The notes under the pieces were generated by a model that saw only the letters and a list, made by a program, of their open reading frames with translations, had not been told where the DNA came from and made no database searches. From IMG/VR virus record IMGVR_UViG_2695420651_000024: a stretch of DNA of 42,748 nucleotides; one strand, given 5' to 3'. The translations under genes were made by a program, and so were the position numbers. This document shows, in pieces, positions 1-17,422 of the stretch; position 1 is the first letter of the stretch; each line of letters starts with the position of its first letter. The DNA is from a virus (lineage: Duplodnaviria > Heunggongvirae > Uroviricota > Caudoviricetes).

Positions 1-332
1 CCGCCAACAGGCTGGCTGAAATGCAACGGTGCGGCTTTTTCTGCTGAAGAATACCCGGAACTGGCAAAGGCTTACCCGACCAATAAATTGCCTGATTTAC
101 GCGGTGAATTTATTCGTGGCTGGGATGACGGTCGCGGGATTGATACTGGTCGCGCTTTGCTTAATTGGCAGCCACACACAATTTTGGACCATGCACACTA
201 TATGGAATTATGGACAGGGGACGGACTCGCCGCAGGAAGTGCACGGGAAGGAGTAAACCCAGGAATACTGGCTACATACGGTGACGGGGGAATAGTTAAA
301 ACGGACGAACCCGGTCTTAATGTGCCTTCCTC
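1..332. repeat. Inverted repeat, left copy (reverse complement of 3185..3516); runs to the window edge so the true length is unknown
   Basis: Bases 1..36 are the exact reverse complement of 3481..3516. The 75-aa shadow ORFs 29..256(+) and 3261..3488(-) are identical. Identity ends after ggtcttaatgtgccttcc at 332/3185. Confidence 0.85.
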
Positions 333-384
333 ACTACGAGCTCTCGTAGTGTTAAACGTTATGGTGAAATTAGTGAAAATGTAG
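1..384 (+). CDS. Tail fibre protein, C-terminal tail-collar domain (5' end outside window)
   Basis: Frame open from base 1: [48 protein letters not shown]...HTILDHAHY, identical to the C-terminal part of the 3160..3933 fibre. Followed by a tfa gene. Confidence 0.6.
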   Translation, partial: PPTGWLKCNGAAFSAEEYPELAKAYPTNKLPDLRGEFIRGWDDGRGIDTGRALLNWQPHTILDHAHYMELWTGDGLAAGSAREGVNPGILATYGDGGIVKTDEPGLNVPSSLRALVVLNVMVKLVKM

Positions 385-436
385 GTACAGAAACTCGTCC
401 TCGTAACATCGCTTTTAATTATATCGTAAGGGCCGC

Positions 437-1042
437 ATGATGAATAAAGCTGTATTAAATAGCGAACTCATCACCACAAAGGCGGGAGACATTACCGTTT
501 ACAATTATGATGGTGAGACACGGGAATATATTTCCACATCAACTGAATATCTTGCTGTGGGTGTCGGTATCCCGGCATGTTCCTGTTTAGATGCTCCTGG
601 CTCATATAAAGCTGGTTATGCAATTTGCCGTTCTGCAGATTTTAACTCATGGGAATATGTGCCAGACCATCGCGGTGAAACGGTCTATAGCACTGAAACA
701 GGAGAATCAAAAGAAATCACAGCTCCGGGTGATTACCCTGAAAATACAACCACTATCGCTCCATTAACGCCATACGATAAATGGGATGGTGAGAAATGGG
801 TGACCGATACTGAGGCACAGCATAGCGCAGCAGTCGAAGCGGCAGAAGCACAGCGTCAGTCACTGATTGATGCTGCAATGGCTTCCATTAGTCTGATTCA
901 ACTGAAATTACAGGCCGGGCGGAAGCTGACGCAGGCAGAAACAACCCGGCTTAACGCTGTGCTGGATTACATTGACGCGGTGACTGCAACAGATACCAGC
1001 ACCGCGCCGGATGTCATCTGGCCTGAACTGCCGGAGGCGTAG
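437..1042 (+). CDS. tfa: Tail fibre assembly protein (Tfa)
   Basis: 201 aa; typical Tfa C-terminus ...TAPDVIWPELPEA; directly downstream of the fibre gene. Confidence 0.75.
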   Translation: MMNKAVLNSELITTKAGDITVYNYDGETREYISTSTEYLAVGVGIPACSCLDAPGSYKAGYAICRSADFNSWEYVPDHRGETVYSTETGESKEITAPGDYPENTTTIAPLTPYDKWDGEKWVTDTEAQHSAAVEAAEAQRQSLIDAAMASISLIQLKLQAGRKLTQAETTRLNAVLDYIDAVTATDTSTAPDVIWPELPEA

Positions 1043-1433
1043 GCCATTCAATATCTGGAGCACTGGAGATATCAACCAGTTCCAGTGCGTCCAGATAATC
1101 CAGCCATAAATTATATTGTTCCAGCTCGTCACCTTTCAGACGACCAATAGCGGCTTTACCAGGCCATTGCCTGCTATTCATGTGCTCGTTGGCTTCATTA
1201 ATAAGTTTTCCTTTTTTCAACTCTGCCAATGCAATAAGGTTTTCTTTTGATAAAGGTGGTTGCTCTGTCAAAACCGGATATCCCTCCTGATTGCTGACTA
1301 TTTTCATGCCATTATCCTGACCATCCAGTAGTGACAGCCATTCATCCGTGGTTATCTCAACAGCATCTGAAGGTGCTTTATTTAAATCGGTAAAAAAACC
1401 ATTTTCTTTTTGTGAATAGAAGTATCTGTCCAT
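1014..1433 (-). CDS. Alternative tail fibre assembly protein (Tfa') of the invertible cassette
   Basis: 139 aa; C-terminal SSAPDIEWPTPP motif; convergent with tfa and overlapping its 3' end, as in e14 tfaP/tfaE and Mu U/U'. Confidence 0.7.
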   Translation of the reverse strand: MDRYFYSQKENGFFTDLNKAPSDAVEITTDEWLSLLDGQDNGMKIVSNQEGYPVLTEQPPLSKENLIALAELKKGKLINEANEHMNSRQWPGKAAIGRLKGDELEQYNLWLDYLDALELVDISSAPDIEWPTPPAVQAR

Positions 1434-1436
1434 TTA

Positions 1437-1784
1437 TCAATCTCCAAAAGCAATCCAGTAAGCAAAAGGATTTACTCCTTGCTCAGTCACAGATGACATC
1501 AGGGAAAATTGCGATGGTGAAACAGGTAATGCTGCAAAACTAACCATTGTTGACACACCTGACCGTGCATTATCGTACGATGCAACAACACAATAATTGG
1601 TATTGCTGAAAGATATCGGCAGGGTGATATTTACAGGTGAGCCTAATGGCCCTGATGCTGATATTCCCATTTGAATGATGGTTCCATCAGGCAATTTTCT
1701 CCAGCGATTAGAACTCGGATTTCTTTTCCAGGCTGACATATCCGGTATCTGATTTTCTCCTGTACCCACATCCCTTTTCGCCGC
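1437..1784 (-). CDS. Promoterless alternative tail-fibre C-terminal segment (Sv'-like), expressed only after inversion
   Basis: Open frame (track ORF 1437..1838) with no plausible own start; it begins at the crossover site next to the invertase, the arrangement seen in Mu G / e14 P segments. Confidence 0.5.
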   Translation of the reverse strand, partial: AAKRDVGTGENQIPDMSAWKRNPSSNRWRKLPDGTIIQMGISASGPLGSPVNITLPISFSNTNYCVVASYDNARSGVSTMVSFAALPVSPSQFSLMSSVTEQGVNPFAYWIAFGD

Positions 1785-1810
1785 TTCTCCCAAACCAACG
1801 TTTATGAAAA
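1785..1810. other. Putative Pin/Gin/Hin-type inversion crossover site
   Basis: TTCTCCCAAACCAACGTTTATGAAAA matches the hix/gix/pix pattern TTnnnnAAAACCnnGGTTTnnnnAA at most core positions; lies between the Sv' segment and the invertase gene. Confidence 0.45.
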
Positions 1811-1865
1811 TGCAGAGATAACGGGCAACTGGCATCATCTCCGGTTTTTATTCAGGGGATCCATC

Positions 1866-2419
1866 ATGCTTATTGGCTATGTACGCGTATCAACAAATGA
1901 CCAGAACACCGATCTGCAACGTAATGCACTGAACTGCGCGGGATGTGAGCGGTTTTTTGAGGATAAAATCAGTGGCACTAAGTCCGACAGACCGGGGCTT
2001 AAAAAACTGCTCAGGACACTATCGGCAGGAGACACTCTGGTTGTCTGGAAGCTGGACAGGTTGGGGCGCAGTATGCGGCATCTTGTTACGCTGATAGAAG
2101 AGTTGCGTCAGCGTGGCGTGAATTTCCGAAGCCTGACTGACAGTATTGATACCAGCACCCCAATGGCCGTTTCTTTTTTCATGTCATGGGTGCCCTGGCT
2201 GAAATGGAGCGTGAACTGATTGTTGAACGAACAAAAGCTGGACTGGAAGCTGCTCGCGCACAGGGACGAATTGGCGGTCGCCGTCCCAAACTTTCATCAG
2301 AACAATGGGCGCAGGCCGGGCGACTAATTGCATCAGGCGTTCCTCGCCAGAATGTGGAGATCATCTATGATGTTGGCGTATCGACTTTGTATAAGAAGTT
2401 TCCGGTCGGAGATAAATGA
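1866..2419 (+). pseudogene. pin: Serine DNA invertase (Pin/Gin/Hin family) disrupted by a frameshift
   Basis: N-terminal MLIGYVRVSTNDQNTDLQRNAL...VVWKLDRLGRSM (catalytic Ser region) in one frame (1866..2219); C-terminal GALAEMERELIVERTKAG...GRIGGRRPKL...YDVGVSTLYKK in the next frame (2186..2419). The switch is at about 2163..2170, within ccaatggccgtttc. Confidence 0.8.
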
Positions 2420-2499
2420 AACCGTAGCACGTCGTATGCAAGAACGTGCCACGGCTGGCTGATAAGCTTGTAAAAATATTGAACAGGGAGTGGAGCATT

Positions 2500-3147
2500 C
2501 TATGAAGCTAATTTGTTTAATTTCATTTGTAGTGACTTTACTTCTTGGTCGATAATGTCGAATCCCTTATTGACAGCATCTCTTAGCTCTGCATCAATAT
2601 TTTTTATCCCTTGAGCATAATCTACCATTACATTTATTTTTGCATCATGTAATCTCTTATACATGGTTTTATCTTTGTTATTGTCTGCCATGCCAATAAG
2701 GATTTTTTCATAATCCTCAATGAGTTTGTTGTTTCCTTTAAATGATTGTATTAATGAGCGTGAATATGTGTATATGTTAATTATTGAGTCTCTAGCAGAA
2801 TCATTTAGTTTTGCAATGACATTCGCATTTTGCTCATAGAATGTGAAATTATCATCCCCTACAGGGAATGTGAGAATCAACATTTGTCCCGGTTTTATAT
2901 TATCAATGTGTGTTTTCATCCTTTTATTATATAAATTGATTAGGGTGAAAACTTCTCCCTTAACTCCTTTTAATACTGAAAGTTGTAATTCAAGGGATTC
3001 TCTTTCTGTCTCTACTTTAGACAGCTTAGCTTGTTGGGTAACTCCTTTTAGGGTAAACCATCCGCCAATAAGAGTACCAACTAGAGCTGTGAGGGAGGAG
3101 GATAACCATCCAGGTATGCTATTTAAAAGATTACTAAATTCACTCAT
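2500..3147 (-). CDS. Hypothetical membrane-anchored coiled-coil protein on a low-GC insert
   Basis: 215 aa; one N-terminal TM helix (LLNSIPGWLSSSLTALVGTLIGGWFTL) then K/E/N-rich helical region; DNA visibly AT-rich compared with flanks; sits where a tfa gene would normally follow the fibre gene. Confidence 0.5.
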   Translation of the reverse strand: MSEFSNLLNSIPGWLSSSLTALVGTLIGGWFTLKGVTQQAKLSKVETERESLELQLSVLKGVKGEVFTLINLYNKRMKTHIDNIKPGQMLILTFPVGDDNFTFYEQNANVIAKLNDSARDSIINIYTYSRSLIQSFKGNNKLIEDYEKILIGMADNNKDKTMYKRLHDAKINVMVDYAQGIKNIDAELRDAVNKGFDIIDQEVKSLQMKLNKLAS

Positions 3148-3159
3148 TATAAGTACTCG

Positions 3160-3933
3160 CTAATATTGAACGATATATATATCAGAGGAAGGCACATTAA
3201 GACCGGGTTCGTCCGTTTTAACTATTCCCCCGTCACCGTATGTAGCCAGTATTCCTGGGTTTACTCCTTCCCGTGCACTTCCTGCGGCGAGTCCGTCCCC
3301 TGTCCATAATTCCATATAGTGTGCATGGTCCAAAATTGTGTGTGGCTGCCAATTAAGCAAAGCGCGACCAGTATCAATCCCGCGACCGTCATCCCAGCCA
3401 CGAATAAATTCACCGCGTAAATCAGGCAATTTATTGGTCGGGTAAGCCTTTGCCAGTTCCGGGTATTCTTCAGCAGAAAAAGCCGCACCGTTGCATTTCA
3501 GCCAGCCTGTTGGCGGTGTGACTGAAGGCCACGGAACAGGCACACCAACAGGTAATGCAGAACCTTCTCCCAAACCAAGGTTTTCGAGAGCCGTTTGCAC
3601 AGTGCCATCCGATTTGATATCGCCAAACGGATTCTTGCGGCTCAGGTATTCAACAGCAAACCCCGATCCCAGCAATTCAACAAAACCGGGCAGATCACCA
3701 TTATCAAGCACATCCCGTTGCGTTTTGTCACTTACAAACTGGGCCAGAGCTGCAGCAATAAAGCTGGCCTGTCGAATGGCTTTGTTCACCTGCGCACTGG
3801 ATGCTTTCCCTGCTGTAAATCCGGATAAAAGCGCAGGCAACGCTTCCCATTCCTCCTGCGACATAACATTGGCATTTCGATCAGTTGCAAACGCTTTAAA
3901 GTCATTTTTCGCCATCAGAGTAATACTCCCCAT
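3160..3933 (-). CDS. Tail fibre protein with tail-collar C-terminal domain
   Basis: 257 aa; last gene of the baseplate operon; C-terminal ~110 aa identical to the left-edge fibre fragment (inverted repeat). Confidence 0.7.
3185..3516. repeat. Inverted repeat, right copy (reverse complement of 1..332)
   Basis: See left copy; the identical sequence encodes the C-terminal domain of the 3160..3933 fibre. Confidence 0.85.
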
Positions 3934-4595
3934 GCTCCTACATCAAAACCACTGATGAATTCGTTATCCATATCAAAACCAAAAAATTTTGAGCCTTCCG
4001 ATGGGGTTTCCACCGAAGGAGTTTCAATGCCCCCCGCCCATACCCCGGCGGCTTTTACTGTGAGATACCCCTGTTTAATTGCCGCAATTAACTCACGCGA
4101 TACATCTGAAATATCAGTATCAGGAAAGACCCAGACCGATATCGTCATGTCCTGGTTATCGACTATCTGCATTCGCAGCCCGGATCCTGCTGTTGCCGCG
4201 TCAAGAATTGCCGGAAGCGAATCATTCCGTCCGTCCCAGTTATTAATCGCAATCTTCGCTTTAAGGATGACACGATAAGTTTCATCGCTGAGGTACATGT
4301 ATCCGGAATCAGGATCGTATGGTCCCTGCCATACACCCTGATCATATCCAAGCCCGTCGGTATCCCAGCTGAAATAAACACCTGAGATAGGCTGGCTGAC
4401 AACACGGCTACGTCCGATCCACAATCCCAGAATGTCAAGTTGCACACCAACCGCAGAGTCAATATCAAATGCAGTAATCAGCCCTCTGGTGGCCGCCGCA
4501 ACATCAATAAGCGGCCGGGTCATCAGATCAACATGTGCAAGAAATTTAGGTTTGGTGGCGTGGTAGTTCGTGATTAGTTCGGTGTATTTGCTCAT
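3915..4595 (-). CDS. Baseplate/tail-fibre-proximal protein (Mu gp48-like, DUF2313-type)
   Basis: 226 aa; immediately upstream of the fibre and downstream of the baseplate J-like gene; family assignment from memory. Confidence 0.5.
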
Positions 4596-5791
4596 GACTC
4601 CACCGTTATAACGATATTTTCCGGGGTACAGGACGCAGATTCGTTGTATCTGATATCAATGTTTGATGACGACAAAGCCCCCGGAGATTTCCCAATCGTC
4701 AGTTCCTGAATATCGTAATAGCGTGCATTCCCGCCACTCACCACGCCAAGATTCGCCGGTGAGTAAATGCGACTTAAAAGGACCGAATCACCAATCATCA
4801 GACTATTGATATAGTCGGAAATAGCCTGCTGGATCTGCTGCCCTATCTGTGAGGTATAACCCGTAAAAACTTTTAATTTAATCCGGGCATAAACAGGCAC
4901 ATCACTGGAACGCGAGAATTTGATTACATGGGGATTGCCGTATTTATCCGGAACCGTAACGGATGTTGTACCGTGAGTGGCTGTCCCCTGGCCTTTATTC
5001 CCTCTGATAGCCTGAGCAATATCCATCACATCACCGCCATCCACAATTACAGCAACAGAGTGTGGCGGTAACCCGTTACCGTCCTCCGAACCAGTATCGT
5101 TTTCATAGAGTTTGTGGCGGGTTACACCGGTAACATTAGAAACAGCACCATCCAGTGCTTCAAATGGGGTTATTGATGGCAACGCAACACTTTGCGACTG
5201 GCGGATACGTAACTCCGCATCAGTTTCTGCCGGAGAGCCAACAGTAGCCGCAGCAGGATTAGTTACCGAAACCCAGCCACGGGTTGGCGTATTAATTTCA
5301 GTGATAGTTCCAGCCAGCGCCGCCACTGCACCACTGACGGAACATGTTGCGGTCGCCATCACTGTACCATCCACGCCGACCACCACTGAAGCAGGCAAAC
5401 GCCATATCACACTATTACTGTCTTTCACGCTGCCATTAATGATGGTTGTTCCGGCAGTTCCTGTAAGAAGCAAATCAACCGTAGAATTCGTCGCGCCTTT
5501 ACGTGAAATACCATTTATTTTCACGTTACTGGTCAGTGCGGCCCCATAGCCGGTTGCCGGTGAAAAACAGTTGTAGACAGTTATCGCAGTATTATTGGCA
5601 TCATGAATCGCCAGCGCCATCAGAGCCACCATCTGGCCGTCTTTACTATCCGGTTCGAGGTAGGCATCACTGCCATAAATCTGCTGAAAATAGCTAATCA
5701 GGGTGCTGAGTATCGTCTGATAATCAGGCGCACTGATCCCCTCCGCGGTTACCTTTGCAGATAAACCGAGAGAATCAAGGTTCAGAGCCAT
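4592..5791 (-). CDS. Baseplate J-like protein (Mu gp47-like)
   Basis: 399 aa; position and size in a conserved gp45-46-47-48 order. Confidence 0.6.
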   Translation of the reverse strand: MALNLDSLGLSAKVTAEGISAPDYQTILSTLISYFQQIYGSDAYLEPDSKDGQMVALMALAIHDANNTAITVYNCFSPATGYGAALTSNVKINGISRKGATNSTVDLLLTGTAGTTIINGSVKDSNSVIWRLPASVVVGVDGTVMATATCSVSGAVAALAGTITEINTPTRGWVSVTNPAAATVGSPAETDAELRIRQSQSVALPSITPFEALDGAVSNVTGVTRHKLYENDTGSEDGNGLPPHSVAVIVDGGDVMDIAQAIRGNKGQGTATHGTTSVTVPDKYGNPHVIKFSRSSDVPVYARIKLKVFTGYTSQIGQQIQQAISDYINSLMIGDSVLLSRIYSPANLGVVSGGNARYYDIQELTIGKSPGALSSSNIDIRYNESASCTPENIVITVES

Positions 5792-6144
5792 TACGCCTCC
5801 GATTTAACAGTCGTTATTCCATAGAGAGTGTCGATTTCAGCGGAAAACATGACACGTCGGGTCGTGGTATCCACCGTCGTATTGAAAGAGAGGATTGATT
5901 TAACGCCCCGCGTTTCGAGGATGCGCTTACGGATCGCCAGGTTGTAGGTTTCCGGCTTCTGCTTACCGAGCACAGACTGGATCCACGGGGTCCCTTCGGT
6001 GGTGTCGAGAAACCATTGCCCATACCACAATTCAAATCGCGTTTTTACCGCCTGCGCCACGGCCTCCGGTGAGTTAATCAGCCAGGTGTCATCACCGCTG
6101 CCAAAGGTGTAATCGCCATCGGCGTCTTCACGTCTGTATCGCAT
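5791..6144 (-). CDS. Baseplate protein, GpW/gp25-like (Mu gp46-like)
   Basis: 117 aa; start overlaps the stop of the upstream gene; conserved position. Confidence 0.5.
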   Translation of the reverse strand: MRYRREDADGDYTFGSGDDTWLINSPEAVAQAVKTRFELWYGQWFLDTTEGTPWIQSVLGKQKPETYNLAIRKRILETRGVKSILSFNTTVDTTTRRVMFSAEIDTLYGITTVKSEA

Positions 6145-6896
6145 CAGTTTACCCTATCGGTATTGCTTCCACCGCGCTGAACACCGCCATGAGTGTGCGT
6201 ATCATCGATTGGCTTGCCGTTAGCCTTCACGCTCCCCAAAAACTCAACAGCACCAGTGATTTTTGAAGCCACACCAGAAACCACAGACCCCACCATGCCC
6301 CCCATCCAGGTTAACAGGCCATGAATGGTTACTTTCTCAGAAAAATCAGCCAGAGGGGCAACCACATCAAGACCACCCGGAGCGACAATTTTAATTTTCC
6401 TGGTATCAGGATTAAGCTCAAAATAGGTGCTGCCGTCATCACTACGCAACTGTGTGGCACTGGTATTAATACCGCTAATCCTCCTTGCCTGCGACTGGGG
6501 ACCGACAATACAAAACGCATCCGATAAATCATGCATTCTGTCATCGACCGTCTCCTGTATCCCGCCACTCTGCCACCAGAAATCGATGCAGCGATCGGCA
6601 AAAATCACCAGGCATTCATCGCCGGCTTTTACCGGGAAAGTTAACGTGCAGCCGCCGCCGCGCGGAAATACCACCGGCACATCCACCAGCAGCGGGTAAT
6701 TTTTGGTTACGCGGTTGCCGTCGTTGTCGGTTTCAACCGAACGAATAGCAGGCTGCACAACCGCCGTCACCGCGTCAGGATCGAATGACTGAACGATGCC
6801 AGGCAAAGCGACGCGGATCTGGTTCTTTGTGGTTTCCCGCTCGGATTTGAATGTTTCGGCAAGGTCGCCGCTACGAGTCTGGTCTGATATGGCCAT
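6144..6896 (-). CDS. Baseplate spike/assembly protein (Mu gp45-like)
   Basis: Start taken at the internal ATG at 6896, which has AGGAG 7 nt upstream (product MAISDQTRSGD...); PGIVQSFDP...VVFP...GDECLVIF...RCIDFWW resembles the gp45/gp138 N-terminal domain. Confidence 0.6.
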   Translation of the reverse strand: MAISDQTRSGDLAETFKSERETTKNQIRVALPGIVQSFDPDAVTAVVQPAIRSVETDNDGNRVTKNYPLLVDVPVVFPRGGGCTLTFPVKAGDECLVIFADRCIDFWWQSGGIQETVDDRMHDLSDAFCIVGPQSQARRISGINTSATQLRSDDGSTYFELNPDTRKIKIVAPGGLDVVAPLADFSEKVTIHGLLTWMGGMVGSVVSGVASKITGAVEFLGSVKANGKPIDDTHTHGGVQRGGSNTDRVN

Positions 6897-6910
6897 TTGA
6901 TAAACTCCTG

Positions 6911-6938
6911 AAAACAAAAAACCCGCCAAGTGGCGGGT
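6911..6938 (-). terminator. Rho-independent terminator closing the baseplate moron operon
   Basis: Minus strand reads ACCCGCC-ACTT-GGCGGGT followed by TTTTTGTTTT, immediately upstream of the RBS of the gp45-like gene. Confidence 0.6.
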
Positions 6939-6958
6939 CTACAGGAACAACTCTAAGT

Positions 6959-7129
6959 TTATTTTTTCTGTTTAAAATTGTCCAACTCAGGTTCTTTAAC
7001 GCTTTCTGTCATGTAATCCAATCCACCAAAAGGTACTTCAAGCATTATACTGCTTTCATAATCAGCCATGGATTGCTCTGCTTGCGTTGGCTTGCTTTGC
7101 TGTGAGTTGTCATTATTTGATGTTGTCAT
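6959..7129 (-). CDS. Small acidic hypothetical protein (56 aa), translationally coupled to the membrane protein gene
   Basis: Hand translation: MTTSNNDNSQQSKPTQAEQSMADYESSIMLEVPFGGLDYMTESVKEPELDNFKQKK; ATG 3 nt after the upstream TAG; below the 60-aa track cutoff. Confidence 0.35.
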   Translation of the reverse strand: MTTSNNDNSQQSKPTQAEQSMADYESSIMLEVPFGGLDYMTESVKEPELDNFKQKK

Positions 7130-7132
7130 CAA

Positions 7133-7687
7133 CTATGCCTTATTTATCAAAAGAAAAGTAACCGATAATATGAAAAAACCGAAAGATAACGCAATTCCTT
7201 CAAAAAGATAACGAGCGTAAACTGCCTTTTCTTTATGAAGACTTTCGATCAATTCAACAGCTTTACCATACTGAAACATATGGTATCTAAGCGTTTTAAT
7301 TTTATCACCGTAAAATAAAAAATCATGCTCTTCTTTTCGCTTATGAATAGGCATTTTTGGTATATCTTTCAGTCCCCAAGTACGCCATAGGAAAAAAAAG
7401 CACATAACAATACAAACAAAGCACAGATATGCACAAAGTATAGATAATGTTAAAAACCAATTACTCTTTAGCCCACTTTTGAAATCAACAGTCCCAAATA
7501 CAGCCAGTAGAGCAGAGGTTTCTACAGCTAAAATAGCAAGAAGGTAGTTAACTTTGTCCTCAAGACGACGATATGTTGATTTTGCTTCCTCATATCTATC
7601 TTTATAATATGACGAAATAAAATCAGCGCCTATAGTCTCAATTGCCTTTTGTTCTTCTGTTGTATCTATTGACGAACGCTTGCTCAT
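7133..7687 (-). CDS. Hypothetical multi-pass inner-membrane protein on a low-GC insert
   Basis: 184 aa; about 45-aa soluble N-terminus, two adjacent TM helices, ~60-aa loop, C-terminal TM; strongly AT-rich DNA. Confidence 0.55.
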   Translation of the reverse strand: MSKRSSIDTTEEQKAIETIGADFISSYYKDRYEEAKSTYRRLEDKVNYLLAILAVETSALLAVFGTVDFKSGLKSNWFLTLSILCAYLCFVCIVMCFFFLWRTWGLKDIPKMPIHKRKEEHDFLFYGDKIKTLRYHMFQYGKAVELIESLHKEKAVYARYLFEGIALSFGFFILSVTFLLINKA

Positions 7688-7694
7688 TTCTCAA

Positions 7695-8042
7695 TCAACC
7701 AACAACTTTCTTACACGGGAAAGAGCCAATAATTTTCGGAGCATCCATGCTGTTCTGCAACAACTGGACGTTCAGGAAACGCGTTTTAGTGCCAGGTCGA
7801 TGGATATACTCGAACCCATAATTGTTGCCATCTTTGGCAGGCATCAGGTCCATTTTGATCTGCATGCCTGTACCGTCTTTACCCAACATTTTTACTTTTT
7901 GGGACGTTACTGTTTCGCCATTGATTTTAAATAATGAATCAGGGATCGCATCCATACGAAAGTTGCCGCATTGCATCGTTATGGTGTTTGCACTTACACC
8001 AACAGACACTAATGCCAGCAATGAAAATATCCATCGTTTCAT
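7695..8042 (-). CDS. Hypothetical secreted (periplasmic) protein with Sec signal peptide
   Basis: Start at internal ATG 8042 with GAGAGG RBS; MKRWIFSLLALVSVGVSA / NTITMQCG...; two Cys in the mature part; GC lower than flanking structural genes. Confidence 0.55.
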   Translation of the reverse strand: MKRWIFSLLALVSVGVSANTITMQCGNFRMDAIPDSLFKINGETVTSQKVKMLGKDGTGMQIKMDLMPAKDGNNYGFEYIHRPGTKTRFLNVQLLQNSMDAPKIIGSFPCKKVVG

Positions 8043-8044
8043 TT

Positions 8045-9109
8045 CTATAATCCTCTCTGAAAAGCAGTGCTGGATGGCATATCCTGCGCACCGCGCGCTT
8101 CGCACATCATATCCATGTACCACGCCTGGCCCCTTGTATCGCCAGTGTACATAATCCCGCGCACAATATAAACGCCATCCGTTGCGATGCTGGCAGGCTG
8201 CGATGTGGTGCCGCTTAGCGTAATATTTCCGTCCGTGTTCTGGTCGGTGATCTGCCCACCAGCCATAGCGATATCGTTGTTCGACAACGCGGTGCGATAT
8301 ACGGAAGCCTGATCCAGTTGAATGAGCCCATTAACCCGGATGTTCGGATTAATAAGCGCGCGAACGTTTACGCCGTTGCCGATGGTCTGCTGCGGCATGC
8401 CAATAAGCCCGGTAGCGCTGTTGAGCACAATCGCTTCGTGAACATATTCATTATTCGCCACCATCTGGCGCTGACCGTCTACGAATTGCCATGTTGCGCC
8501 ACATTGCCCGGCTACGTTATCCATTAGATGCCGCGTCATGCCAAAGAGCACCCGCCCCCGGGGGAATACAGTAGCAGGCATTTCAGGCGTCAGGCCTTCG
8601 GTCGCACCTTTGGCTTCGAAGTCTTTCATCAGCGCACGGTTCACATCAGCGACCGTGTAACCGGCAGCCAGCGTCTGTGAGGTTATACTGGTGGCAAAAG
8701 CCAGATCAGTATCTGCTGCCTGAATCAGGACGTAGGAATCAACCGGACTGTCTTTTCCTGTAACCGAGTAGCGAATTTCACCGCTGAAAATCAGTCCGTA
8801 GTTGCGGCCATCACTCTGGCCCACGTCCGCCGCATCAACCTCCCGCACGATCCCGACGTCGCTTGCCGACACCTCCGGCGCGATACCGTCGTAACCCGCA
8901 ATCAGACGCACTTTCGAAAACTCCCGCCCGGTGATTCGGTTCACAGTATCTGCCGAGAGGTTATAAATTTTGATAGTCCCTACCCGGGACGCGCTGCTGA
9001 TGTTGAACCAGTCGATCGTAAAGGTCACTTTAAAATCACTTAGCTCAATTCCCTGACCGTTCCCGTCCACAAGCTGCAGCTCGAAATGTCTCATCCAGTT
9101 CTGTGACAT
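8045..9109 (-). CDS. Baseplate hub-like tail protein (Mu gp44-like)
   Basis: 354 aa; position between tape-measure-proximal genes and the gp45-like gene. Confidence 0.5.
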   Translation of the reverse strand: MSQNWMRHFELQLVDGNGQGIELSDFKVTFTIDWFNISSASRVGTIKIYNLSADTVNRITGREFSKVRLIAGYDGIAPEVSASDVGIVREVDAADVGQSDGRNYGLIFSGEIRYSVTGKDSPVDSYVLIQAADTDLAFATSITSQTLAAGYTVADVNRALMKDFEAKGATEGLTPEMPATVFPRGRVLFGMTRHLMDNVAGQCGATWQFVDGQRQMVANNEYVHEAIVLNSATGLIGMPQQTIGNGVNVRALINPNIRVNGLIQLDQASVYRTALSNNDIAMAGGQITDQNTDGNITLSGTTSQPASIATDGVYIVRGIMYTGDTRGQAWYMDMMCEARGAQDMPSSTAFQRGL

Positions 9110-9111
9110 GC

Positions 9112-9414
9112 TTACTCCGTTGATACCAGTAAATGGCTGCGACCGCCCAGGTCAGTTTTTGTGGGGTAATCCTGTGTGTTGTCATCACAGACCACCACCA
9201 GCTTAAAACCAAGCCCCATACAGGCGTACTGCGCCAGCAGGTCAGCACCAGTGACGAGAGGAATACCGGAGATTACCGGCTCCCCTCTGTCGTTCTGCAG
9301 GTCCATAATCCAGTACAGATCGCGCCATATGATGCTAATCCGCCAGGTAACACCACCCAGGACGATGCTGAACTGCTGGTTGTCCGCTGTCAGCGGAATT
9401 TCCTGAATTGCCAT
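9112..9414 (-). CDS. Phage tail protein (small, baseplate-associated)
   Basis: 100 aa; tightly packed within the tail operon. Confidence 0.4.
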   Translation of the reverse strand: MAIQEIPLTADNQQFSIVLGGVTWRISIIWRDLYWIMDLQNDRGEPVISGIPLVTGADLLAQYACMGLGFKLVVVCDDNTQDYPTKTDLGGRSHLLVSTE

Positions 9415-10001
9415 TAGCCGCCCCCCAGTAATGACGCCACGTTACCCGTGATGCTTTTCAGCAGTGAAGTATCTGGAGGCTTGGTGGTTTTGTTGCCGCT
9501 GTTCTGTACCGCCGAGGTGCTGGCCCCTTCCTTCATGTTGGTTTTATCCGCGACGGAAATCTGCTGTGTCCGGGAGATAAGGACCTCCCTCAGGGTGAGG
9601 ACGGCGGACAGGACGTTTTCGGTTGTCTTGTCCGTCGTCACTTCCAGCGCCCGGATCAACATGTTGCTGTACAGTCGTTTACCGGTTACCACATCGAAGG
9701 GGATACGGCTTTCCTGCAGATCCAGTAGCTCCTGATACGTCTGCTGAGGACTCAGGCCGAGCAGGCTGGTAGCCGTCAGGTTACTGGCAAAATCCAGCAA
9801 TGCGCCACCACCGGCGAAACCAACCTCCATCACCACTTCTGACGGTTTTTTATAGGCATGATCAGCGACAGCGGCCCCGACCTCTACCGGATGCTCTGTT
9901 ATTTCAAGCATATCTGTATGCTTCTCTGAAATAACAACACAGGGAACAATCATTCCTATTTTTCTGCTCTGCTGATGAAAAAGTGTAGAGAGAATATCCA
10001 C
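9414..10001 (-). CDS. Phage tail protein immediately downstream of the tape measure
   Basis: 195 aa; position only. Confidence 0.4.
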   Translation of the reverse strand: MDILSTLFHQQSRKIGMIVPCVVISEKHTDMLEITEHPVEVGAAVADHAYKKPSEVVMEVGFAGGGALLDFASNLTATSLLGLSPQQTYQELLDLQESRIPFDVVTGKRLYSNMLIRALEVTTDKTTENVLSAVLTLREVLISRTQQISVADKTNMKEGASTSAVQNSGNKTTKPPDTSLLKSITGNVASLLGGG

Positions 10002-11989
10002 TAACCCACCCTCACCTGATTACTTCGCATGACCTGAGCATTTGCAGACTGTTGCCGACGTGCAACCTCATTACCGACAGCGTGCGGATCTCCACCACCG
10101 TAAATGTGGTAGGTATTTTGCTGGTTAACCTCTGTCACTTTGCCACTAATTCCCGCCACGGCAGCCTTATTAATCAGCTCCCGAGAATAGATATTTCTTC
10201 CATTCTCATGCTGGATAATGCTGCTCATCAATGCTGACATGGTTTGCGGATCGCTCATATTCAGGGCAGCCCGGGGATCCACTCCCAGTCGTTGCGATAC
10301 AGCCCTGATATACGCAGTTGTGTTGTTATTATCAGACGCAGGTGCCCAGGTAGAGATAATTTTCTCCACACTGTTTATTCCCCGTCCGGCGTACAGCATT
10401 AACTGACGAGCAAGAGCCCGTAATCCATCAAAAGCAGTTTCAAATCTGGCAAATCGCCCGCCCGGGCGTTCAAGAGAAGCCCCTGCCTGACCAGCAAAAT
10501 TAAGGTTTCCCGGATTGTTATTCCGTTCTCCTCGTTTCGTAGCCTGTGCATGTTGTTCCGGCTCATCATCACCAAACCAGCCGCGTACCGTCCGGCCCAC
10601 ACTGCGGGGATCGAATCCCCAGTGCTCTTTAATCCAGTCGGCAGTACTGTTAGCGCTGTCTGTAACCATCGGCATCGCTGACGGATTTTCGCTGCCCTGA
10701 TTAAGTATCTGTTTGCCGATGCTGACGGCATCAGCCCAGCGGCCATCTTTGATAGCGTTGAGCAGGTCGGCGATCATGTTCAGCATTTTGCTGAATTCGC
10801 CCATCTGGTCGATGAAGTTGCTGAAATCCCACTTCAGGGACCATGATTTGGGGTCAATATTGAGCAGTTTCGCCAGCGCTTTCACCAGGTCGTTAACGGT
10901 CGTTTTAAGGTCACGAACCATCTTCAGCGCGGCATCGACCTCCGGTTTCCACTTGCCCCAGTCAATCAGGCTGTCGCCGCCTTCCTTCCAGGTCTGATAG
11001 TCCTCCCACAGGAGGGCAATACCCGCCGCCAGCGCGGTAATGAGGCCAATCGGCGACATCCAGAACGTACTGTTCAGAATGCGCAGCGCAATCGTCAGTG
11101 CGCCAAACAGCGAGATCAACTCCCGCGTTTGCTTATCCAGCGATTGCCACCAGGTGATAAGGCCTGATGTCCCCTCAATCAGTCTGAAGAACAGCCGCCC
11201 GATAATATCCCCGAGCGCCAGAATGCCTTTTATGGCTTTCGTCAGGGTCTGCTCGATACGAGGGAAGTTGTCCAGGATATGGCGGCGCAGGGTGTCCAGC
11301 GAACCCGCAAGCCCCCCCGCAAGATTAGAGCCGATTTTGTCACGGGCCATGCCTGCCATCGCGCCAAACTCACGCAGGGAGGTCATAAATTTGTTGGAGC
11401 TTCTGGCCGCCTCGTCAGCATTGAAGCCGATAGCTTTCGCCATTGCGCTGTACTGCCCGGAGAAGCCACCCACACCCCGGCGCATCGCCATAAGGGTATT
11501 TTCGTCAATGCCCAGCATCTGCGCATACTGGTTAGCCCGGTAATACGGCATGCTGCTGAGTTTCTGTCCAACGCCCGTAAAAATAGCGGCCATGTCACGC
11601 ATGTTACCGCTGGCATCACGGGTCTGTACGCCCAGGCGATTCAGAAAGCCTTCTGCACCGGGATTGTTACGAATAAACCGGGATAGGCTTTCCAGAGAAG
11701 ATCGCGCAGCGTCCACGCTGCCGCCAACCTGCGAAACCGCATAGCCAATAGACTGAATTCCCTGGACTGTCGCGCCGGTGCGCTGTGACGCCCAGTAAAG
11801 ATTATCCAGGCCGGAGGCGATCTTAGCCGTGAAGGCCACCACGGACAACGCAGCTCCTTCAACAGCCAGCCCCATTTTGATGACATTTGCAGTTGTACCG
11901 GCGAGGACAGAACCGAACTTTTTCGCTCCTGCATCATCCACACTGAAGCCAAGCGAGACGAGGAAATCTTTAATAGTTTCAGCGTTCAT
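10001..11989 (-). CDS. Tail tape measure protein
   Basis: About 660 aa, Ala/Gly-rich helical protein with a central hydrophobic segment. Start set at ATG 11989 (MNAETIKDF...) preceded by GGAGAGAGG; the track's longer N-terminus reads through that RBS. Confidence 0.7.
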   Translation of the reverse strand: MNAETIKDFLVSLGFSVDDAGAKKFGSVLAGTTANVIKMGLAVEGAALSVVAFTAKIASGLDNLYWASQRTGATVQGIQSIGYAVSQVGGSVDAARSSLESLSRFIRNNPGAEGFLNRLGVQTRDASGNMRDMAAIFTGVGQKLSSMPYYRANQYAQMLGIDENTLMAMRRGVGGFSGQYSAMAKAIGFNADEAARSSNKFMTSLREFGAMAGMARDKIGSNLAGGLAGSLDTLRRHILDNFPRIEQTLTKAIKGILALGDIIGRLFFRLIEGTSGLITWWQSLDKQTRELISLFGALTIALRILNSTFWMSPIGLITALAAGIALLWEDYQTWKEGGDSLIDWGKWKPEVDAALKMVRDLKTTVNDLVKALAKLLNIDPKSWSLKWDFSNFIDQMGEFSKMLNMIADLLNAIKDGRWADAVSIGKQILNQGSENPSAMPMVTDSANSTADWIKEHWGFDPRSVGRTVRGWFGDDEPEQHAQATKRGERNNNPGNLNFAGQAGASLERPGGRFARFETAFDGLRALARQLMLYAGRGINSVEKIISTWAPASDNNNTTAYIRAVSQRLGVDPRAALNMSDPQTMSALMSSIIQHENGRNIYSRELINKAAVAGISGKVTEVNQQNTYHIYGGGDPHAVGNEVARRQQSANAQVMRSNQVRVG

Positions 11990-12166
11990 TATCCTCTCTC
12001 CATTTCTCAATGCGTCGCTGGTTATCCGCTTTTACCGCCAGATGGTCATTCAAGAGAGCAATGTCATACAAATCGACAGAGCCATCTTTAAGTGCTGTAT
12101 AAGGAATTAACCCGGCGTCAACCGGATTGAGAAGGTAGGACAGCCCGTCCGGCAGGCTGTTAAACG

Positions 12167-12619
12167 TCAGCCTTGTTGCAGGCTCTGCGTCGTGCTGGTA
12201 AGGGGTGTAGGCAAAAAATTTCCCAGCGAATCGGCGACCACCCGCGCCACCAGCTGCAGCATGACCAGCAAGTCAATATCATCAAACATCAGTTCGCCCT
12301 GGGTAAATACCGGCACCCATCCGTCCATATGACGCCGCGATACCACCGCAAGACAGGGATGAATAATCGCATCGGTGTCATCTTCGGTCAGGGAAGACAG
12401 TTCCTCAGCGATACGCGGGAGCATGGTTTCAAACACCGGTTTTAACTGTTCGAATTTCACGGTGTCGATTTTGCCGTCAGCAGGCAAACGGGAGCGAATA
12501 CTCCCGAAATCTGACATCATTCCTGCCAGCACCGGCAGAAGTTTGCGGGTCACTTTCAGCTGGTCAAAAACGCTGAGTTTTGCCGTGCGATATTTCACGC
12601 CTTTAATTTCGAATTCCAT
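12167..12619 (-). CDS. Tail assembly chaperone (frame-0 product)
   Basis: 150 aa, directly upstream of the tape measure; see the frameshift finding. Confidence 0.55.
   Translation of the reverse strand: MEFEIKGVKYRTAKLSVFDQLKVTRKLLPVLAGMMSDFGSIRSRLPADGKIDTVKFEQLKPVFETMLPRIAEELSSLTEDDTDAIIHPCLAVVSRRHMDGWVPVFTQGELMFDDIDLLVMLQLVARVVADSLGNFLPTPLTSTTQSLQQG
12212..12221 (-). other. Candidate -1 programmed frameshift slippery site (AAATTTTTTG) in the tail chaperone
   Basis: Minus strand reads GGG-AAA-TTT-TTT-G near the 3' end of the chaperone; the -1 frame is open for about 75 codons up to a TGA overlapping the tape-measure ATG (11979..11981). Confidence 0.45.
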
Positions 12620-12622
12620 GCA

Positions 12623-13063
12623 TTAAAACTCCCCGAGAACCTGGTCAATCTTGCCGCAGTCAAACACCCACGGCATCGTATTACCGGTTTTAGCGTTGGC
12701 GTTATCCGGTTGTTTCTGGAACGCAACACTGCGTGCCGTGATGATGTCGCCGCTGACCTTGTTGCGGATCACGATAACGTTATTCCCCCATGTGGCAGAA
12801 GACTGGCTCTGTGCGTTATACGCCAGCGACAATTTTTTATTTGTCGGTGATGTCTTCAGAAGGTTAACGGTAATCGTCCCGCTTTTATCTGCATGGAGAC
12901 TGTGCATCACTTCGCCATCAGCACCGATGGTCATGGTGTTTTTAGGACCGCCCATCGCAACCACAATCCCCTCTTCAGAACTTGCCGAACCGTACCCGAG
13001 GTCAATCGAACCTGTCGGCCCGGTCAGCGTCGCAGTGACATCCATAAAAGAATAGGTAGACAT
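12623..13063 (-). CDS. Tail tube protein
   Basis: 146 aa, between sheath and chaperone. Confidence 0.55.
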   Translation of the reverse strand: MSTYSFMDVTATLTGPTGSIDLGYGSASSEEGIVVAMGGPKNTMTIGADGEVMHSLHADKSGTITVNLLKTSPTNKKLSLAYNAQSQSSATWGNNVIVIRNKVSGDIITARSVAFQKQPDNANAKTGNTMPWVFDCGKIDQVLGEF

Positions 13064-13073
13064 TCACTTCCCC

Positions 13074-14219
13074 TTAGCGAACAACGTTAATCTGTACGTC
13101 AGCGTAATGAACCGCGCCTGCAAGTTTTATTGCAGCCTGAATCACCGGAGCCTTACGGGCTTCACGTTCTGATTGAGCCTGTTCATCCAGCGGCTGAGCG
13201 TATACGTAATAACCTTTGGGCAGTGTGTCACCTGATGACAACTGACCAAGGTCGCCCCCGTTCCATACGCCCGGAGCAATCAGTCCATTCTGAACGGCCT
13301 GATCCAGTGATTTTTCAACATTTGATAACAGTCGGGTAATACCGGCTTCAGTCTGGGGAACTTTCGTGGTGCTGGTATAAAGCAGGTTATAGAGGTTGGT
13401 CTGCACATAATTCTGTAACCAGTCCAGGCCGTGGCGTTCATCAAAGAAATCGCCGTTAGCCATCACTCCCTGCTGGAGGATAGCCGTATCATTCTGGTAG
13501 TACACGAATACATTGCAGTTTTTTGCATCAAGTGCCGATGCCTGGCTGACTGTCAGTGTTTCATACCCGATACCCGGCTCCTGCTTAAACTTGAGCGTAA
13601 TCGCGGTATTACTGCCATTGAAATTAACCGTGAATGCCCGGCCAAATGCAGATAACGCAGCGTATTTATTACCCGATGAATACTGAATAAAACTGCGTGA
13701 ATATCCGGCGGTTTTCAGTTTTGATGCCAAATCATCGCTGGATGCAGTCTGCAGGCATTTCTCATCGCTTGTCGTAATCGCCAGAATACGGCTTACAGAA
13801 GAGGATTCGATCGCCGCAGCCACTTTCAGCCAGTCTGCATCCTGAATATCTTCATCGTCTGCAATCCCCAGCCCATACCATGAAGTATAATCAAGCATGG
13901 CATTCACAGCCTGCTCCAGCGTCTCAGGCGTGGCCTGTTCGCTGTCTCCCTTCGTTTTCACCCAACGACCAACAAAAACCTCCTGAGGTTTCGGTGATTG
14001 AGAGAAAAACACCTGCGCAGCCTTATATTCTGGTGATTCCACGCCAAAATCTTTTCCAATATCTTCCGCGGCAGAATAACGGCGAATGCGCTCACTTACC
14101 GGAATGATTGTGGACGGGCCGAGAATGAGTAATGCACCAAAATTTCGCCCTGATGCTGCACGCGGCGACATGATCACATCAACATTAACAACGTTTGATA
14201 CAGGCAAGCCCTGTGCCAT
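13074..14219 (-). CDS. Contractile tail sheath protein
   Basis: 381 aa; position upstream of tube-chaperone-tape measure. Confidence 0.6.
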
Positions 14220-14222
14220 AGC

Positions 14223-14789
14223 TTAATCTCCGAAAAAGATGACTGGTGCATCCACCAGCGATTTAATACCGTACTCGCGCACAACCTTCCGGCGCAGGCG
14301 CACCGTCATATCGTAGCGGCGGACCCATTGCTGATTAATAAGTTCAGGGAAGGGAGTCAGACCTGTGTAATCGCCAAGAGACAGCCCCAGCGCATTCAGT
14401 GCTGCATTGTTCTGCGGCACAGATATACCGTCACGAAACCGGGACGCATACACCATCCCCGCCGGTCCATAAAACGAAGCCATACACTCAATCGTTTCAT
14501 GCCGCCAGAGCTGAGAGCCATCATCGGTCTGTCTGGTGAATGCCGGACTGTCATCACCTGACCATCCGATAACCCCAAACGCACACCAGTTCGTTTCAAC
14601 CGGTAGCAGTGGCGGCTGCTCTTTCTGCCAGCGCGGGCGAACCATCCCGGCAGACAGACCGGAAACGTTACGTATCCACTGGCTTAACAGCCTGTCGAGC
14701 GCTTCGTCATAATCCGGATCGCCACTGGTTGGTATTAACCATCCGCGCTCTGTACTGGTGTTATTGCTCAACCGGAGTTCCCCCATCAA
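14223..14789 (-). CDS. Head-tail joining / tail completion protein
   Basis: 188 aa; position between head and sheath genes. Confidence 0.35.
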   Translation of the reverse strand: MMGELRLSNNTSTERGWLIPTSGDPDYDEALDRLLSQWIRNVSGLSAGMVRPRWQKEQPPLLPVETNWCAFGVIGWSGDDSPAFTRQTDDGSQLWRHETIECMASFYGPAGMVYASRFRDGISVPQNNAALNALGLSLGDYTGLTPFPELINQQWVRRYDMTVRLRRKVVREYGIKSLVDAPVIFFGD

Positions 14790-15150
14790 ACGGCATCAAC
14801 TCACAATGCGCCTGAACGAATCCGGCCCCATAAGCTGTATACGGGTCGACGAAGGTCACACGGTAATCACGGCCCTGATACGTCACGATATCGGCATCAC
14901 GGCCAGTCTGTCCCTGCGTCAGTCGCTCAGTCGTCACAATCAGAATTGCACCACTGATTACCTGCCCGGCCTGCATACGACGGTTTTCCAGAGAGCGATC
15001 AACAGTAACGACTCCGGCAAACTGCTTTTTAACTTCGCTGTCGCTGCCGATTCCGTCCTCATCCACCGTTTGCACACGGCGTGTTACCCACAAATTGAAG
15101 TCGCAAAAATCGGGGTCAAAAAGCACATCTGTTACATCAAGAGTCGGCAT
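14761..15150 (-). CDS. Head-tail connector/closure protein
   Basis: 129 aa; position. Confidence 0.35.
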   Translation of the reverse strand: MPTLDVTDVLFDPDFCDFNLWVTRRVQTVDEDGIGSDSEVKKQFAGVVTVDRSLENRRMQAGQVISGAILIVTTERLTQGQTGRDADIVTYQGRDYRVTFVDPYTAYGAGFVQAHCELMPFDGGTPVEQ

Positions 15151-15691
15151 CTTTATCCCTCACTACATGGGTAATAGCTCTGCGATATTGCCCGGTGTCA
15201 ATTAATGGTTTCGCCAGATCGGTTCCGGGAGATTCGCCAGCAACACGCCGGGCAAGTTCCAGTGTTGCCCCCTTGCGCCCCCGACGAGCCCGGGCTTCAA
15301 CAGTACTGTCAGCAAGCGGCGTAAAGCCGGTAATGGTCATGTAACGCCTGACGCCATTAACGGCCAGCGTTCCGGCACGGTTGAGTGCACTTTCTGCTCC
15401 CGCAGCATTACCATCAAGTGCAGCCTGCGCCGCGGCTTTAAGCTGCGGCACCGTCTGCTCTTCTGCCGATTTAACGCCGGGGACCAGGTGAGGTCGTGGC
15501 GGGATGTTCTGCTCTGGTGAGCCGTATTCGTTGAGGTAACCGATGCCCGCATTACCAAACGGAACATCATCCCGTTCGCTGTCTTCCGAAGGGATGCCGA
15601 CCAGCACATCTTTTTTGGTTAACGACCTGAGCGCATCCAGAATGGCCTTAGCGTTATCCACCCTCGTTGTTACACCGCTTTTGAAACTCAT
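15137..15691 (-). CDS. Head-tail connector protein
   Basis: 184 aa; position. Confidence 0.35.
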
Positions 15692-16095
15692 AGCTGGCGA
15701 CCGCCTGCACCGAACATCGTGATCAACTGATAAAATTCAGCGCCATATCGGGTGTTATTCCAGAAACCTGCATCAGGATTCAGCGTCGCGCTGGTGTCAT
15801 AGCTGACGCTTACCTTATCCACGGACTTTGAGGACTGAACACCATTGGTTGAACCGCCCGGACCACCAGCCAGCATCGCTCTGCTGTCAGCCGCCCAGAG
15901 CGTCATGTAGTGAGCAACGAACAACCCGGCAAAGTACGGAAACAACTTTTTGCCGGTGACATTTTCGCTCAGCAGTTCATCGGCCAGATTCAGACGGAAC
16001 CCGATTTGGGCGTCGGGATATTTTGCCGGGTCAGCAAACTGCGGGAAGTCGCGGCGAAAATCACTTACCGCTGGCAGACTTTGATTCTTTGACAT
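15688..16095 (-). CDS. Phage structural protein (DUF4054-like)
   Basis: Start set at internal ATG 16095 ([13 protein letters not shown]...); position after capsid genes. Confidence 0.4.
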
Positions 16096-16429
16096 CTTTA
16101 GCCCCATTACCGCCAGTCCGGGCGGCAGTAATCTGCGCCTGCAGGCTGTCGTTCTGCTCCTGCAGTTTGAGCAATGCATCTTTAAGATCGGCAATCAGCT
16201 TATCTTTGTCGGCAATCTGCGCTTGCAGGCCGTCGATAATGGGTTGCAGATCATCGGTGTCGCTAATCACGCTTTCGGAAAGCTCAGAGTGCGCCTGGGT
16301 GAACCAGTGCGACGCGACCTCTTCCGGTACGTTATGCCGTCCCCGGCCAAACTCCTGTTTTGACTGATCGCCGAGCGTCAGCGTAAACGGGGTGTGAACA
16401 TGGATGGTAACCAGCTTTTCTTTCGCCAT
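16061..16429 (-). CDS. Hypothetical head protein with coiled-coil C-terminus
   Basis: Start at ATG 16429 ([11 protein letters not shown]...) with AGGAA RBS; the longer track ORF runs into the capsid gene. Confidence 0.35.
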
Positions 16430-16469
16430 TTCAGTTTCCTTCAGGCCCCTTTCGGGGCCATTCTGGTTA

Positions 16470-17411: not shown

Positions 17412-17422
17412 TCGTCTGTTCC

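Follow-up and report, generated by a model that had tools for sequence, protein, structure and literature searches.

A backbone-bounded cargo slot in the tail operon of SEN34-like prophages and a putative two-gene membrane module within it

Between the baseplate hub and central spike genes of a tailed-phage (class Caudoviricetes) genome, the IMG/VR virus record IMGVR_UViG_2695420651_000024 (42,748 nucleotides (nt); this whole stretch is hereafter called the window), lie three small genes for an exported protein (sec), a membrane protein (mem) and a small acidic protein (small), followed by an intrinsic terminator. The original prediction, made from the sequence alone, had read these genes as one three-gene moron closed by its own terminator, named them the strongest candidate in the window for an undescribed accessory system, and likened them to a superinfection-exclusion or injection-blocking module or to an abortive-infection or toxin-immunity unit. 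All three open reading frames (ORFs) and the strong terminator immediately before the ribosome-binding site of the next gene are present on the minus strand where it had placed them, and their described features, i.e., a Sec-signal protein, an AT-rich multi-pass membrane protein and a coupled acidic ORF of 56 amino acids (aa), agree with the sequence. In the direction of transcription, the locus comprises:

8045..9109, minus strand: baseplate hub gene, the upstream boundary of the slot (354 aa; phrog_196 'baseplate hub', E 7.8e-89; PF22759 E217_GP41, E 6.8e-5)
7695..8042, minus strand: exported protein gene, sec (115 aa)
7133..7687, minus strand: membrane protein gene, mem, the first cargo gene (184 aa)
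6959..7129, minus strand: small acidic protein gene, small, the second cargo gene (56 aa)
6909..6940, minus strand: intrinsic terminator (hairpin 6940-6919; 9-bp stem plus T-tract), the downstream end of the slot
6144..6896, minus strand: central spike gene, the downstream boundary of the slot (250 aa; PF18352 N-terminal domain, E 6.7e-44; PF18946 Apex motif)

The window comprises one complete SEN34-like (Brunovirus) prophage, which recurs as an identical stretch in Escherichia coli EL361, where it is integrated beside yfhL; the closest named relative is Salmonella phage SEN34 of the genus Brunovirus. Its genes are ordered as integrase, early genes, Q-family antiterminator, lysis, head, tail and baseplate genes, and an invertible tail-fibre segment. 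Within the baseplate block the genes are tightly packed, with gaps of 2 nt between hub and sec, 7 nt between sec and mem and 3 nt between mem and small, and the hub protein shares 82-95% amino acid identity with its counterparts in E. coli and Salmonella relatives. The 9-bp stem of the terminator (6 G-C pairs) is followed by TTTTTTGTTTT and abuts directly on the ribosome-binding site of the spike gene. It was the sole match of the terminator scan in positions 5500-9500 and the best-ranked one in positions 1-20000, and with a folding energy of -21.3 kcal/mol (z = -3.5) it folds better than every shuffled sequence (0 of 200 folded as well).

Of 5426 complete E. coli genomes, at least 307 have the flanks of the slot, i.e., the 3' end of the hub gene and the 5' end of the spike gene; mem and small are present in 29 genomes, and the full query was matched in 21. 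Throughout the sampled relatives from E. coli, Salmonella, Klebsiella and Yersinia the order is constant, namely hub gene, sec homologue, variable cargo, hairpin and spike gene, and the following cargo was found in place of mem and small:

Locus L003: YafO-family toxin gene plus a gene for a 190-aa protein
Locus L002: reverse-strand 121-aa ORF
Locus L012: gene for a DUF4282 two-helix membrane protein
Locus L013: gene for a DUF4236 protein
Salmonella phage SEN34 (L004): gene for a membrane-anchored 138-aa protein
Klebsiella phage Mulock (L014): gene for a 148-aa protein with an N-terminal membrane helix

The cargo of Klebsiella phage ST340-VIM1phi10.1 (L023, 4051-4617) consists of a gene for a 188-aa protein with a HEAGH zinc-metalloprotease-type motif and a reverse-strand 61-aa ORF.

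In all seven loci measured, the cargo has a GC content of 0.34-0.44 versus 0.52-0.57 in the flanks; the cassette of the window (6959-7687) has 34% GC, and mem itself 33.7% (25% at third codon positions) versus 53-54% in the hub and spike genes on either side. In the comparison with locus L031, identity is 95-98% for the flanking proteins but only 67%, 47% and 39% for sec, mem and small, respectively, as would be expected if the slot underwent allelic replacement. The hairpin before the spike gene is kept in 11 of the 11 other loci compared, whatever the cargo; in Klebsiella and Serratia it occupies the same position, but its stem differs in sequence. Since it accompanies every cargo, the terminator is part of the phage backbone, not of the insert, contrary to the idea that the unit brings its own. 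The region is thus a cargo slot in the tail operon of a SEN34-like temperate myovirus and is built of three layers: an exported gene, a swappable cassette and a backbone terminator. Judged by composition and comparison of loci, only mem and small make up the insert, a foreign, low-GC cargo.

The sec product begins with MKRWIFSLLALVSVGVSA and continues with NT; one N-terminal hydrophobic segment with a VSA cleavage-type motif makes up a predicted signal peptide, and the protein has two invariant cysteines (C25 and C110) and a pI of 9.7. It is named 'STY1065/STY2022 family phage-derived protein' in RefSeq, matches phrog_3443 (E 2e-51) and falls into a family of at least 386 clusters at 90% identity in the Enterobacterales. 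In 19 phage records, including those of distant Klebsiella phages (~32% identity), the gene comes immediately after the hub gene, and every relative examined from E. coli, Salmonella, Klebsiella and Yersinia has a homologue of 109-117 aa in this position, irrespective of the cargo behind it. Among the isolated phages of the lineage it is carried by SEN34, YP3, Mulock and GZ7. Its alleles reassort independently of mem and small: at locus L029, a mem product 98% identical to that of the window lies beside a SEN34-type sec, and the divergence of sec likewise does not track that of the hub and spike proteins. This presence in all those relatives, with any cargo, together with the reassortment of alleles, places sec outside the insert, and by these comparisons sec is a gene of the lineage backbone rather than of the variable cargo. 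The original prediction of a single three-gene moron is therefore not upheld: one of its members is a lineage gene that sits directly behind the hub gene.

The C-terminal half of sec is nearly invariant across genera, and the N-terminal half of the mature protein is variable (column identity 0.86 and 0.66 for the C-terminal and N-terminal halves, respectively). An AlphaFold2 model shows a seven-strand beta fold (pLDDT 82.5), and a search of the sec profile against PDB sequences gave nothing meaningful. We consider the protein probably periplasmic, with a predicted disulfide bond, and probably co-expressed with the hub gene; in Salmonella locus L018 the hub (4577-5650) and sec (5647-5994) genes overlap. 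Its target might be the transglycosylase domain (PF01464) of the tape-measure protein, which is a guess. In Serratia prophages (L008, 5147-5821; L021, 5216-5941), a lipoprotein of 224-241 aa with a lipobox (LSSC/LTSC) replaces sec behind the hub gene, so that an envelope-targeted product seems to be a conserved theme at this position.

The second cargo gene encodes a hydrophilic protein with a pI of 4.3 and no hydrophobic segment, which matches phrog_18231 (E 5e-43). In all close homologues of mem, including the one from Serratia (36% identity), a small gene lies directly 3' as an acidic ORF of 52-63 aa with the conserved motif YE..I...VPFG.L...TES, in line with the co-occurrence in other prophages for which the original prediction had suggested looking. 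At nearly all distant mem loci, too, a very hydrophilic ORF of 21-71 aa either starts no more than a few nt from the mem stop codon or overlaps the end of mem. An ORF of such size is by itself unsurprising, and weight is therefore placed on shared features. An acidic 39-aa ORF begins 2 nt after the Vibrio homologue of mem (24% identity) and has the VATES motif in common with the enterobacterial partners, and the partner ORFs of siphophage and inovirus homologues have the core V-[PDE]-x-[PG]-x-[LI]-x-[VIL]-x-x-[ED]-S; in the inovirus, the small ORF overlaps the 3' end of mem. Several metagenomic contigs carry a small hydrophilic ORF 3' of the mem homologue that is devoid of this core. The dipeptide KP occurs near the N-terminus of 11 of 16 small partner ORFs, and a Lys/Arg-rich tail ends nearly all of them. 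Taken together, the comparisons show mem and small as a conserved two-gene module in which small is predicted to be translated by coupling across the 3-nt gap. A fusion of the two by read-through of the mem stop codon was considered and rejected, as the genes are in frame only in the window and in other frames in relatives.

The mem product, a predicted inner-membrane protein, has three hydrophobic segments (residues 46-69, 75-106 and 160-184). Its AlphaFold2 model (pLDDT 90.9) is all-helical, with helices at 9-66, 77-104, 118-126 and 129-183, and can be read as a long N-terminal cytosolic helix leading into the first transmembrane helix (TM1), then TM2 and a cytosolic helical segment that leads into TM3. 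Close homologues are rare (12 clusters at 90% identity, plus a Salmonella allele whose exact protein is indexed in 1249 assembly blocks), and all of them sit in the same hub-spike slot. A second allele is intact in eight further complete genomes (ECONIH2, IAI1 and six others) and is unannotated in RefSeq, where the slot appears as a 775-nt gap; in E. coli ECONIH2 (L011) it consists of mem at 1535-2065 (176 aa) and small at 1359-1538 (59 aa). In Salmonella (L015/L017, 5647-7522), the sec/mem/small trio persists together with baseplate genes in a degraded prophage remnant beside sopE, in which an integrase gene and RecT are followed by a 1.6-kb gap and which is devoid of head or tail-tube genes.

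An exhaustive profile search for mem returned 77 cluster representatives, and the two main distant clusters proved homologous to it over the full length in hhalign (98.8% and 99.5% probability). Distant homologues are located in the same slot of a Serratia fonticola prophage, in the tail region of a siphophage, at the end of an inovirus genome, within an array of short cassettes in Vibrio and, in Acinetobacter, on an island beside HipA. In the Vibrio diabolicus contig (L040, 1-5728), the mem homologue is one of a series of single genes with ORFs of ~30 codons between them at regular intervals, an arrangement that looks like a chromosomal integron cassette array. No match to mem was found by tblastn among the PLSDB plasmids, none to a distant mem homologue among phage isolates, and no relative with the close-family profile among GTDB representative genomes. 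Searches of mem against Pfam and NCBIfam returned nothing significant, and on the weak Pfam '8xMP' matches no literature was found. No structural family was matched by sec, mem or small in Pfam, PHROG or NCBIfam, and all three fall into PHROGs of unassigned function, in agreement with the expectation that none of them would be structural.

A remote link to known effectors emerged from the PADLOC models, of which only two matched mem, namely PycTM (2.6e-4) and the 2TM effector of CBASS (7e-3). The PycTM match is collinear, residues 31-140 of mem aligning with positions 8-109 of the 165 in the profile. PycTM models also match 5 and 3 of the 12 close relatives and 11, 7 and 6 of 47 wider relatives (three models), the CBASS 2TM effector is matched by 2 of the 47, and the remaining PADLOC models gave single-member matches only. 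The NCBIfam model NF033634 SLATT_1 matches 6 of the 47 family members (best E 1.2e-6), not including the window protein. SLATT domains were reportedly described by Burroughs et al. in 2015 as predicted 2TM membrane-perturbing suicide effectors of nucleotide-signalling conflict systems; in contrast to such systems, neither the window nor the loci of relatives contain a gene for SMODS/CD-NTase, SLOG, TIR or reverse transcriptase.

PycTM and PucTM, the effectors of the Pycsar and Pucsar anti-phage systems (Pfam PF18967), are described as 3TM proteins of the 'pJV1-SpdB3 family', and EcPucTM forms a hexamer in which the TM2 helices line a channel of ~15 Å (bioRxiv 10.64898/2026.08.12.744502). The mem family resembles them in length (~165-185 aa), three membrane helices, a helical cytosolic region and conflict-related mobile contexts, and the match of its 3TM topology and cytosolic helical region to the published description supports the kinship. 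It differs from Pycsar in that no cyclic-nucleotide (cNMP) cyclase gene is present in the annotation of the window prophage or beside any of the loci of 12 relatives, and in its small hydrophilic partner, the like of which we did not see described for Pycsar in the publications consulted. From this evidence we conclude that mem is likely a remote, cyclase-less relative of the PycTM/pJV1-SpdB3/SLATT effector class and not a member of Pycsar. On the Streptomyces plasmid pSVH1, spdB3, which is highly toxic in E. coli, is likewise followed by a small gene, spd79, and both proteins are required for the spreading of the plasmid in mycelia (PMC4447253). The likeness lies in a family membrane protein gene followed by a small ORF and is linked to mem via the name of the PycTM class only, i.e., by another group's classification; the function in plasmid spreading, not in phage biology, sets the two apart.

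The arrangement is also reminiscent of morons, in that mem and small are variably present among close relatives, compositionally foreign and placed between late genes, with a terminator that closes the insert. Classical lambdoid morons and the defence hotspots of P2 and P4 are well-known cases of accessory cargo in prophages. Here, however, the terminator is that of the backbone rather than of the insert, no insert promoter is visible, and the sec gene is present in every E. coli, Salmonella, Klebsiella and Yersinia relative that was examined. The expectation of an accessory system accordingly stands for the low-GC mem/small cargo, with its remote similarity to anti-phage effectors, and falls for sec, which is not part of the cargo. 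As regards established exclusion proteins, T4 Sp is periplasmic, and T4 Imm and HK97 gp15 are located in the inner membrane. Likeness of the slot products to T4 Imm/Sp, P22 SieA/SieB and HK97 gp15 as small envelope-located phage proteins is one of predicted localisation only, whereas no match to Imm/Sp, SieA/B, Cor or gp15 was found in Pfam, PHROG annotations, NCBIfam or PADLOC, nor any PDB fold match at E < 0.09; the analogy to the Imm/Sp/Sie style drawn originally thus finds no counterpart in sequence similarity.

Two further features of the prophage bear on how the slot could be transcribed:

25667..26089, minus strand: Q-family antiterminator gene (RefSeq annotation of the identical prophage)
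24953..24974, minus strand: strong tR'-like intrinsic terminator (9-bp stem, then TTTTTGTATT), situated between the Q region and the holin gene

We take the latter to be positioned like lambda tR', in a layout that resembles lambda PR'-tR'. The Q gene together with this terminator implies that late transcripts resist terminators. During lytic growth, Q-modified RNA polymerase would read through the slot terminator, allowing the spike and downstream baseplate genes to be made, and in the lysogen any transcription initiated inside the slot would stop at the terminator before reaching the spike gene.

Our preferred reading, to which we would tentatively give a little less than an even chance, is that of a terminator-capped cargo slot whose mem and small genes form a membrane-pore module for phage exclusion or abortive infection. 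By analogy with the PycTM/PucTM channels, mem would oligomerise into a membrane pore, which in the absence of a cyclase the small partner would gate or hold in check. Upon infection by another phage, mem would depolarise or permeabilise the membrane, leading to abortive infection or exclusion and protecting the lysogen population. A broader proposal, which we regard as doubtful, is that mem and small represent an unrecognised, cyclase-independent two-gene phage-exclusion system with a PycTM/SLATT-like pore, distributed over myovirus and siphovirus prophages, filamentous phages and integron cassettes, and in this slot standing beside a sec protein with a variable recognition half. Possibly, sec has a separate envelope function, such as the periplasmic exclusion of related phages.

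Several observations weigh against this preferred reading. The link to PycTM and SLATT is remote (E-values of 1e-4 to 1e-6). Pfam PF18967, which is precomputed on four Salmonella homologues, was not reproduced by hmmscan on homologues at E <= 10, and the window protein did not match it at E <= 1. Foldseek searches with the mem model against PDB and BFVD returned only generic long-helix matches, the mem profile found no solved relative among PDB sequences, and the sec model retrieved only weak avidin-like barrel matches from PDB (TM ~0.45, E > 0.3), so that the remote-homology and structure searches that had been called for yielded PycTM and SLATT_1 profile matches for the mem family and no informative fold match for either protein. 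For the most distant small ORFs the shared motif is short, and their homology is suggestive. No match to mem was found by tblastn among 50,697 sequenced phage isolates. A sigma-70 consensus scan of the coding strand upstream of sec and mem (7690-8300) found no match of at least 9/12, only 8/12, although such a scan cannot exclude a promoter; the only site of at least 9/12 in the region lies at 6984-6956, inside the small ORF and just before the terminator. Insulated expression in the lysogen, as originally envisaged, is mechanistically possible given the Q antiterminator and the tR'-like terminator, whereas no convincing promoter is seen upstream of 8042 or 7687. Given this result and the packing of the genes in the late operon, expression may be late-lytic only, which may fit a role in the service of the phage better than one in lysogen defence. 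The functions proposed for the slot genes, and that of sec in particular, are inferred throughout.

Late expression is the starting point of what we consider an unlikely alternative, in which mem and small serve the phage's own lytic cycle and sec, mem and small are all made late and target the envelope of the cell that makes them, e.g., in a late superinfection block, in the tuning of lysis or membrane potential, or as a DNA-translocation-type channel as proposed for the Streptomyces Spd proteins. The spacing of 2-7 nt behind the hub gene, the hub/sec overlap in Salmonella L018, the lack of a detected promoter, the retention of sec in isolated phages of the lineage and the role of SpdB3-family proteins in plasmid DNA spreading would all fit such a role, yet the cassette is dispensable, being missing from most relatives and from all sequenced phage isolates. 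Its foreign base composition, its alternation with toxin-antitoxin-type and other accessory cargo and its persistence in the degraded Salmonella remnant (L015/L017) also speak against it. As a YafO-family toxin pair is a sister cassette at the same site, a distant homologue lies beside HipA, mem and small are tightly coupled, and SpdB3 is toxic in E. coli, the two genes could form a toxin-antitoxin-like addiction module devoid of an anti-phage role, with mem as the toxin that small neutralises, stabilising the prophage or the cargo of the slot. We think this quite improbable, as no homology to known toxin-antitoxin families was found in Pfam, PADLOC or NCBIfam and the supposed antitoxin is encoded downstream and has no DNA-binding domain. 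Since phage defence is a role of many toxin-antitoxin modules, this alternative overlaps with the proposed pore-forming exclusion module.

The view with which the analysis started, that the three genes form one Imm/Sp- or Sie-like exclusion system with its own promoter and terminator, draws on predicted periplasmic, membrane and cytoplasmic localisations, on the recurrence of the three-gene order in E. coli, Salmonella and metagenomic relatives, and on the joint divergence of all three genes relative to L031. Most relatives, however, carry sec without mem and small, the pair in Serratia is accompanied by a lipoprotein instead, alleles are reassorted in L029, and the terminator is that of the backbone; with neither a promoter nor any similarity to Imm, Sp or Sie proteins detected, this view has become a distinctly remote prospect. 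The least probable of these explanations, and a very unlikely one, is that at least one of the three proteins is an unrecognised component of the virion or of tail assembly. It would account for the position inside the baseplate block and for the conservation and synteny of sec among the relatives examined from E. coli, Salmonella, Klebsiella and Yersinia, but no structural family was matched and the cassette is missing from most relatives, and the signal peptide and invariant cysteine pair of sec and the three membrane helices of mem are hard to reconcile with tail assembly in the cytoplasm. What we continue to favour is thus the cargo slot with a candidate pore-forming exclusion or abortive-infection module.

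Other parts of the prophage show signs of accessory content or decay. A gene annotated as 'BstA C-terminal domain-containing protein' (38250-39179, minus strand) has as its opposite-strand neighbour a frameshifted DNA cytosine methyltransferase gene (37233-38247, plus strand), and this pair is likely another accessory or defence locus, located in the early region. At window positions 1091-3915, a frameshifted pinE-type recombinase gene adjoins tail-fibre and tail-fibre-assembly genes on both strands, an arrangement that resembles an invertible host-range segment, which the frameshift may lock. RefSeq annotates a frameshift in the head morphogenesis gene (19168-19903) of the identical prophage, which may therefore be defective. 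Hypothetical genes that run against the local direction of transcription or lie at the prophage end (30003-30527, minus strand; 33721-34350, minus strand; 363-1010, plus strand) may be additional accessory cargo. An Rfam search of the window found no RNA family.

Variable cargo in the late operons of prophages and the PycTM and SLATT effectors are well known. Literature searches on STY1065/STY2022, Brunovirus/SEN34 and DUF5706/PF18967 returned nothing on these genes or the slot, and we could not find a description of a hub-spike slot with a backbone terminator, of its lineage-wide exported protein or of a stand-alone 3TM protein with a tiny partner. So far, PycTM-type effectors have been understood only as outputs of cyclic-nucleotide signalling. 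If the proposed function is true, a stand-alone pore under the control of a partner of 30-70 aa would show how such effectors can be triggered without a second messenger and would add a compact system to the known repertoire of defence. The fixed flanks and terminator make the slot minable for accessory and defence genes in hundreds of prophages of E. coli, Salmonella and Klebsiella, including those of pathogens such as the enterotoxigenic E. coli (ETEC) strain H10407, O103:H2 and O55:H7 strains, and the sopE-linked remnant in Salmonella.

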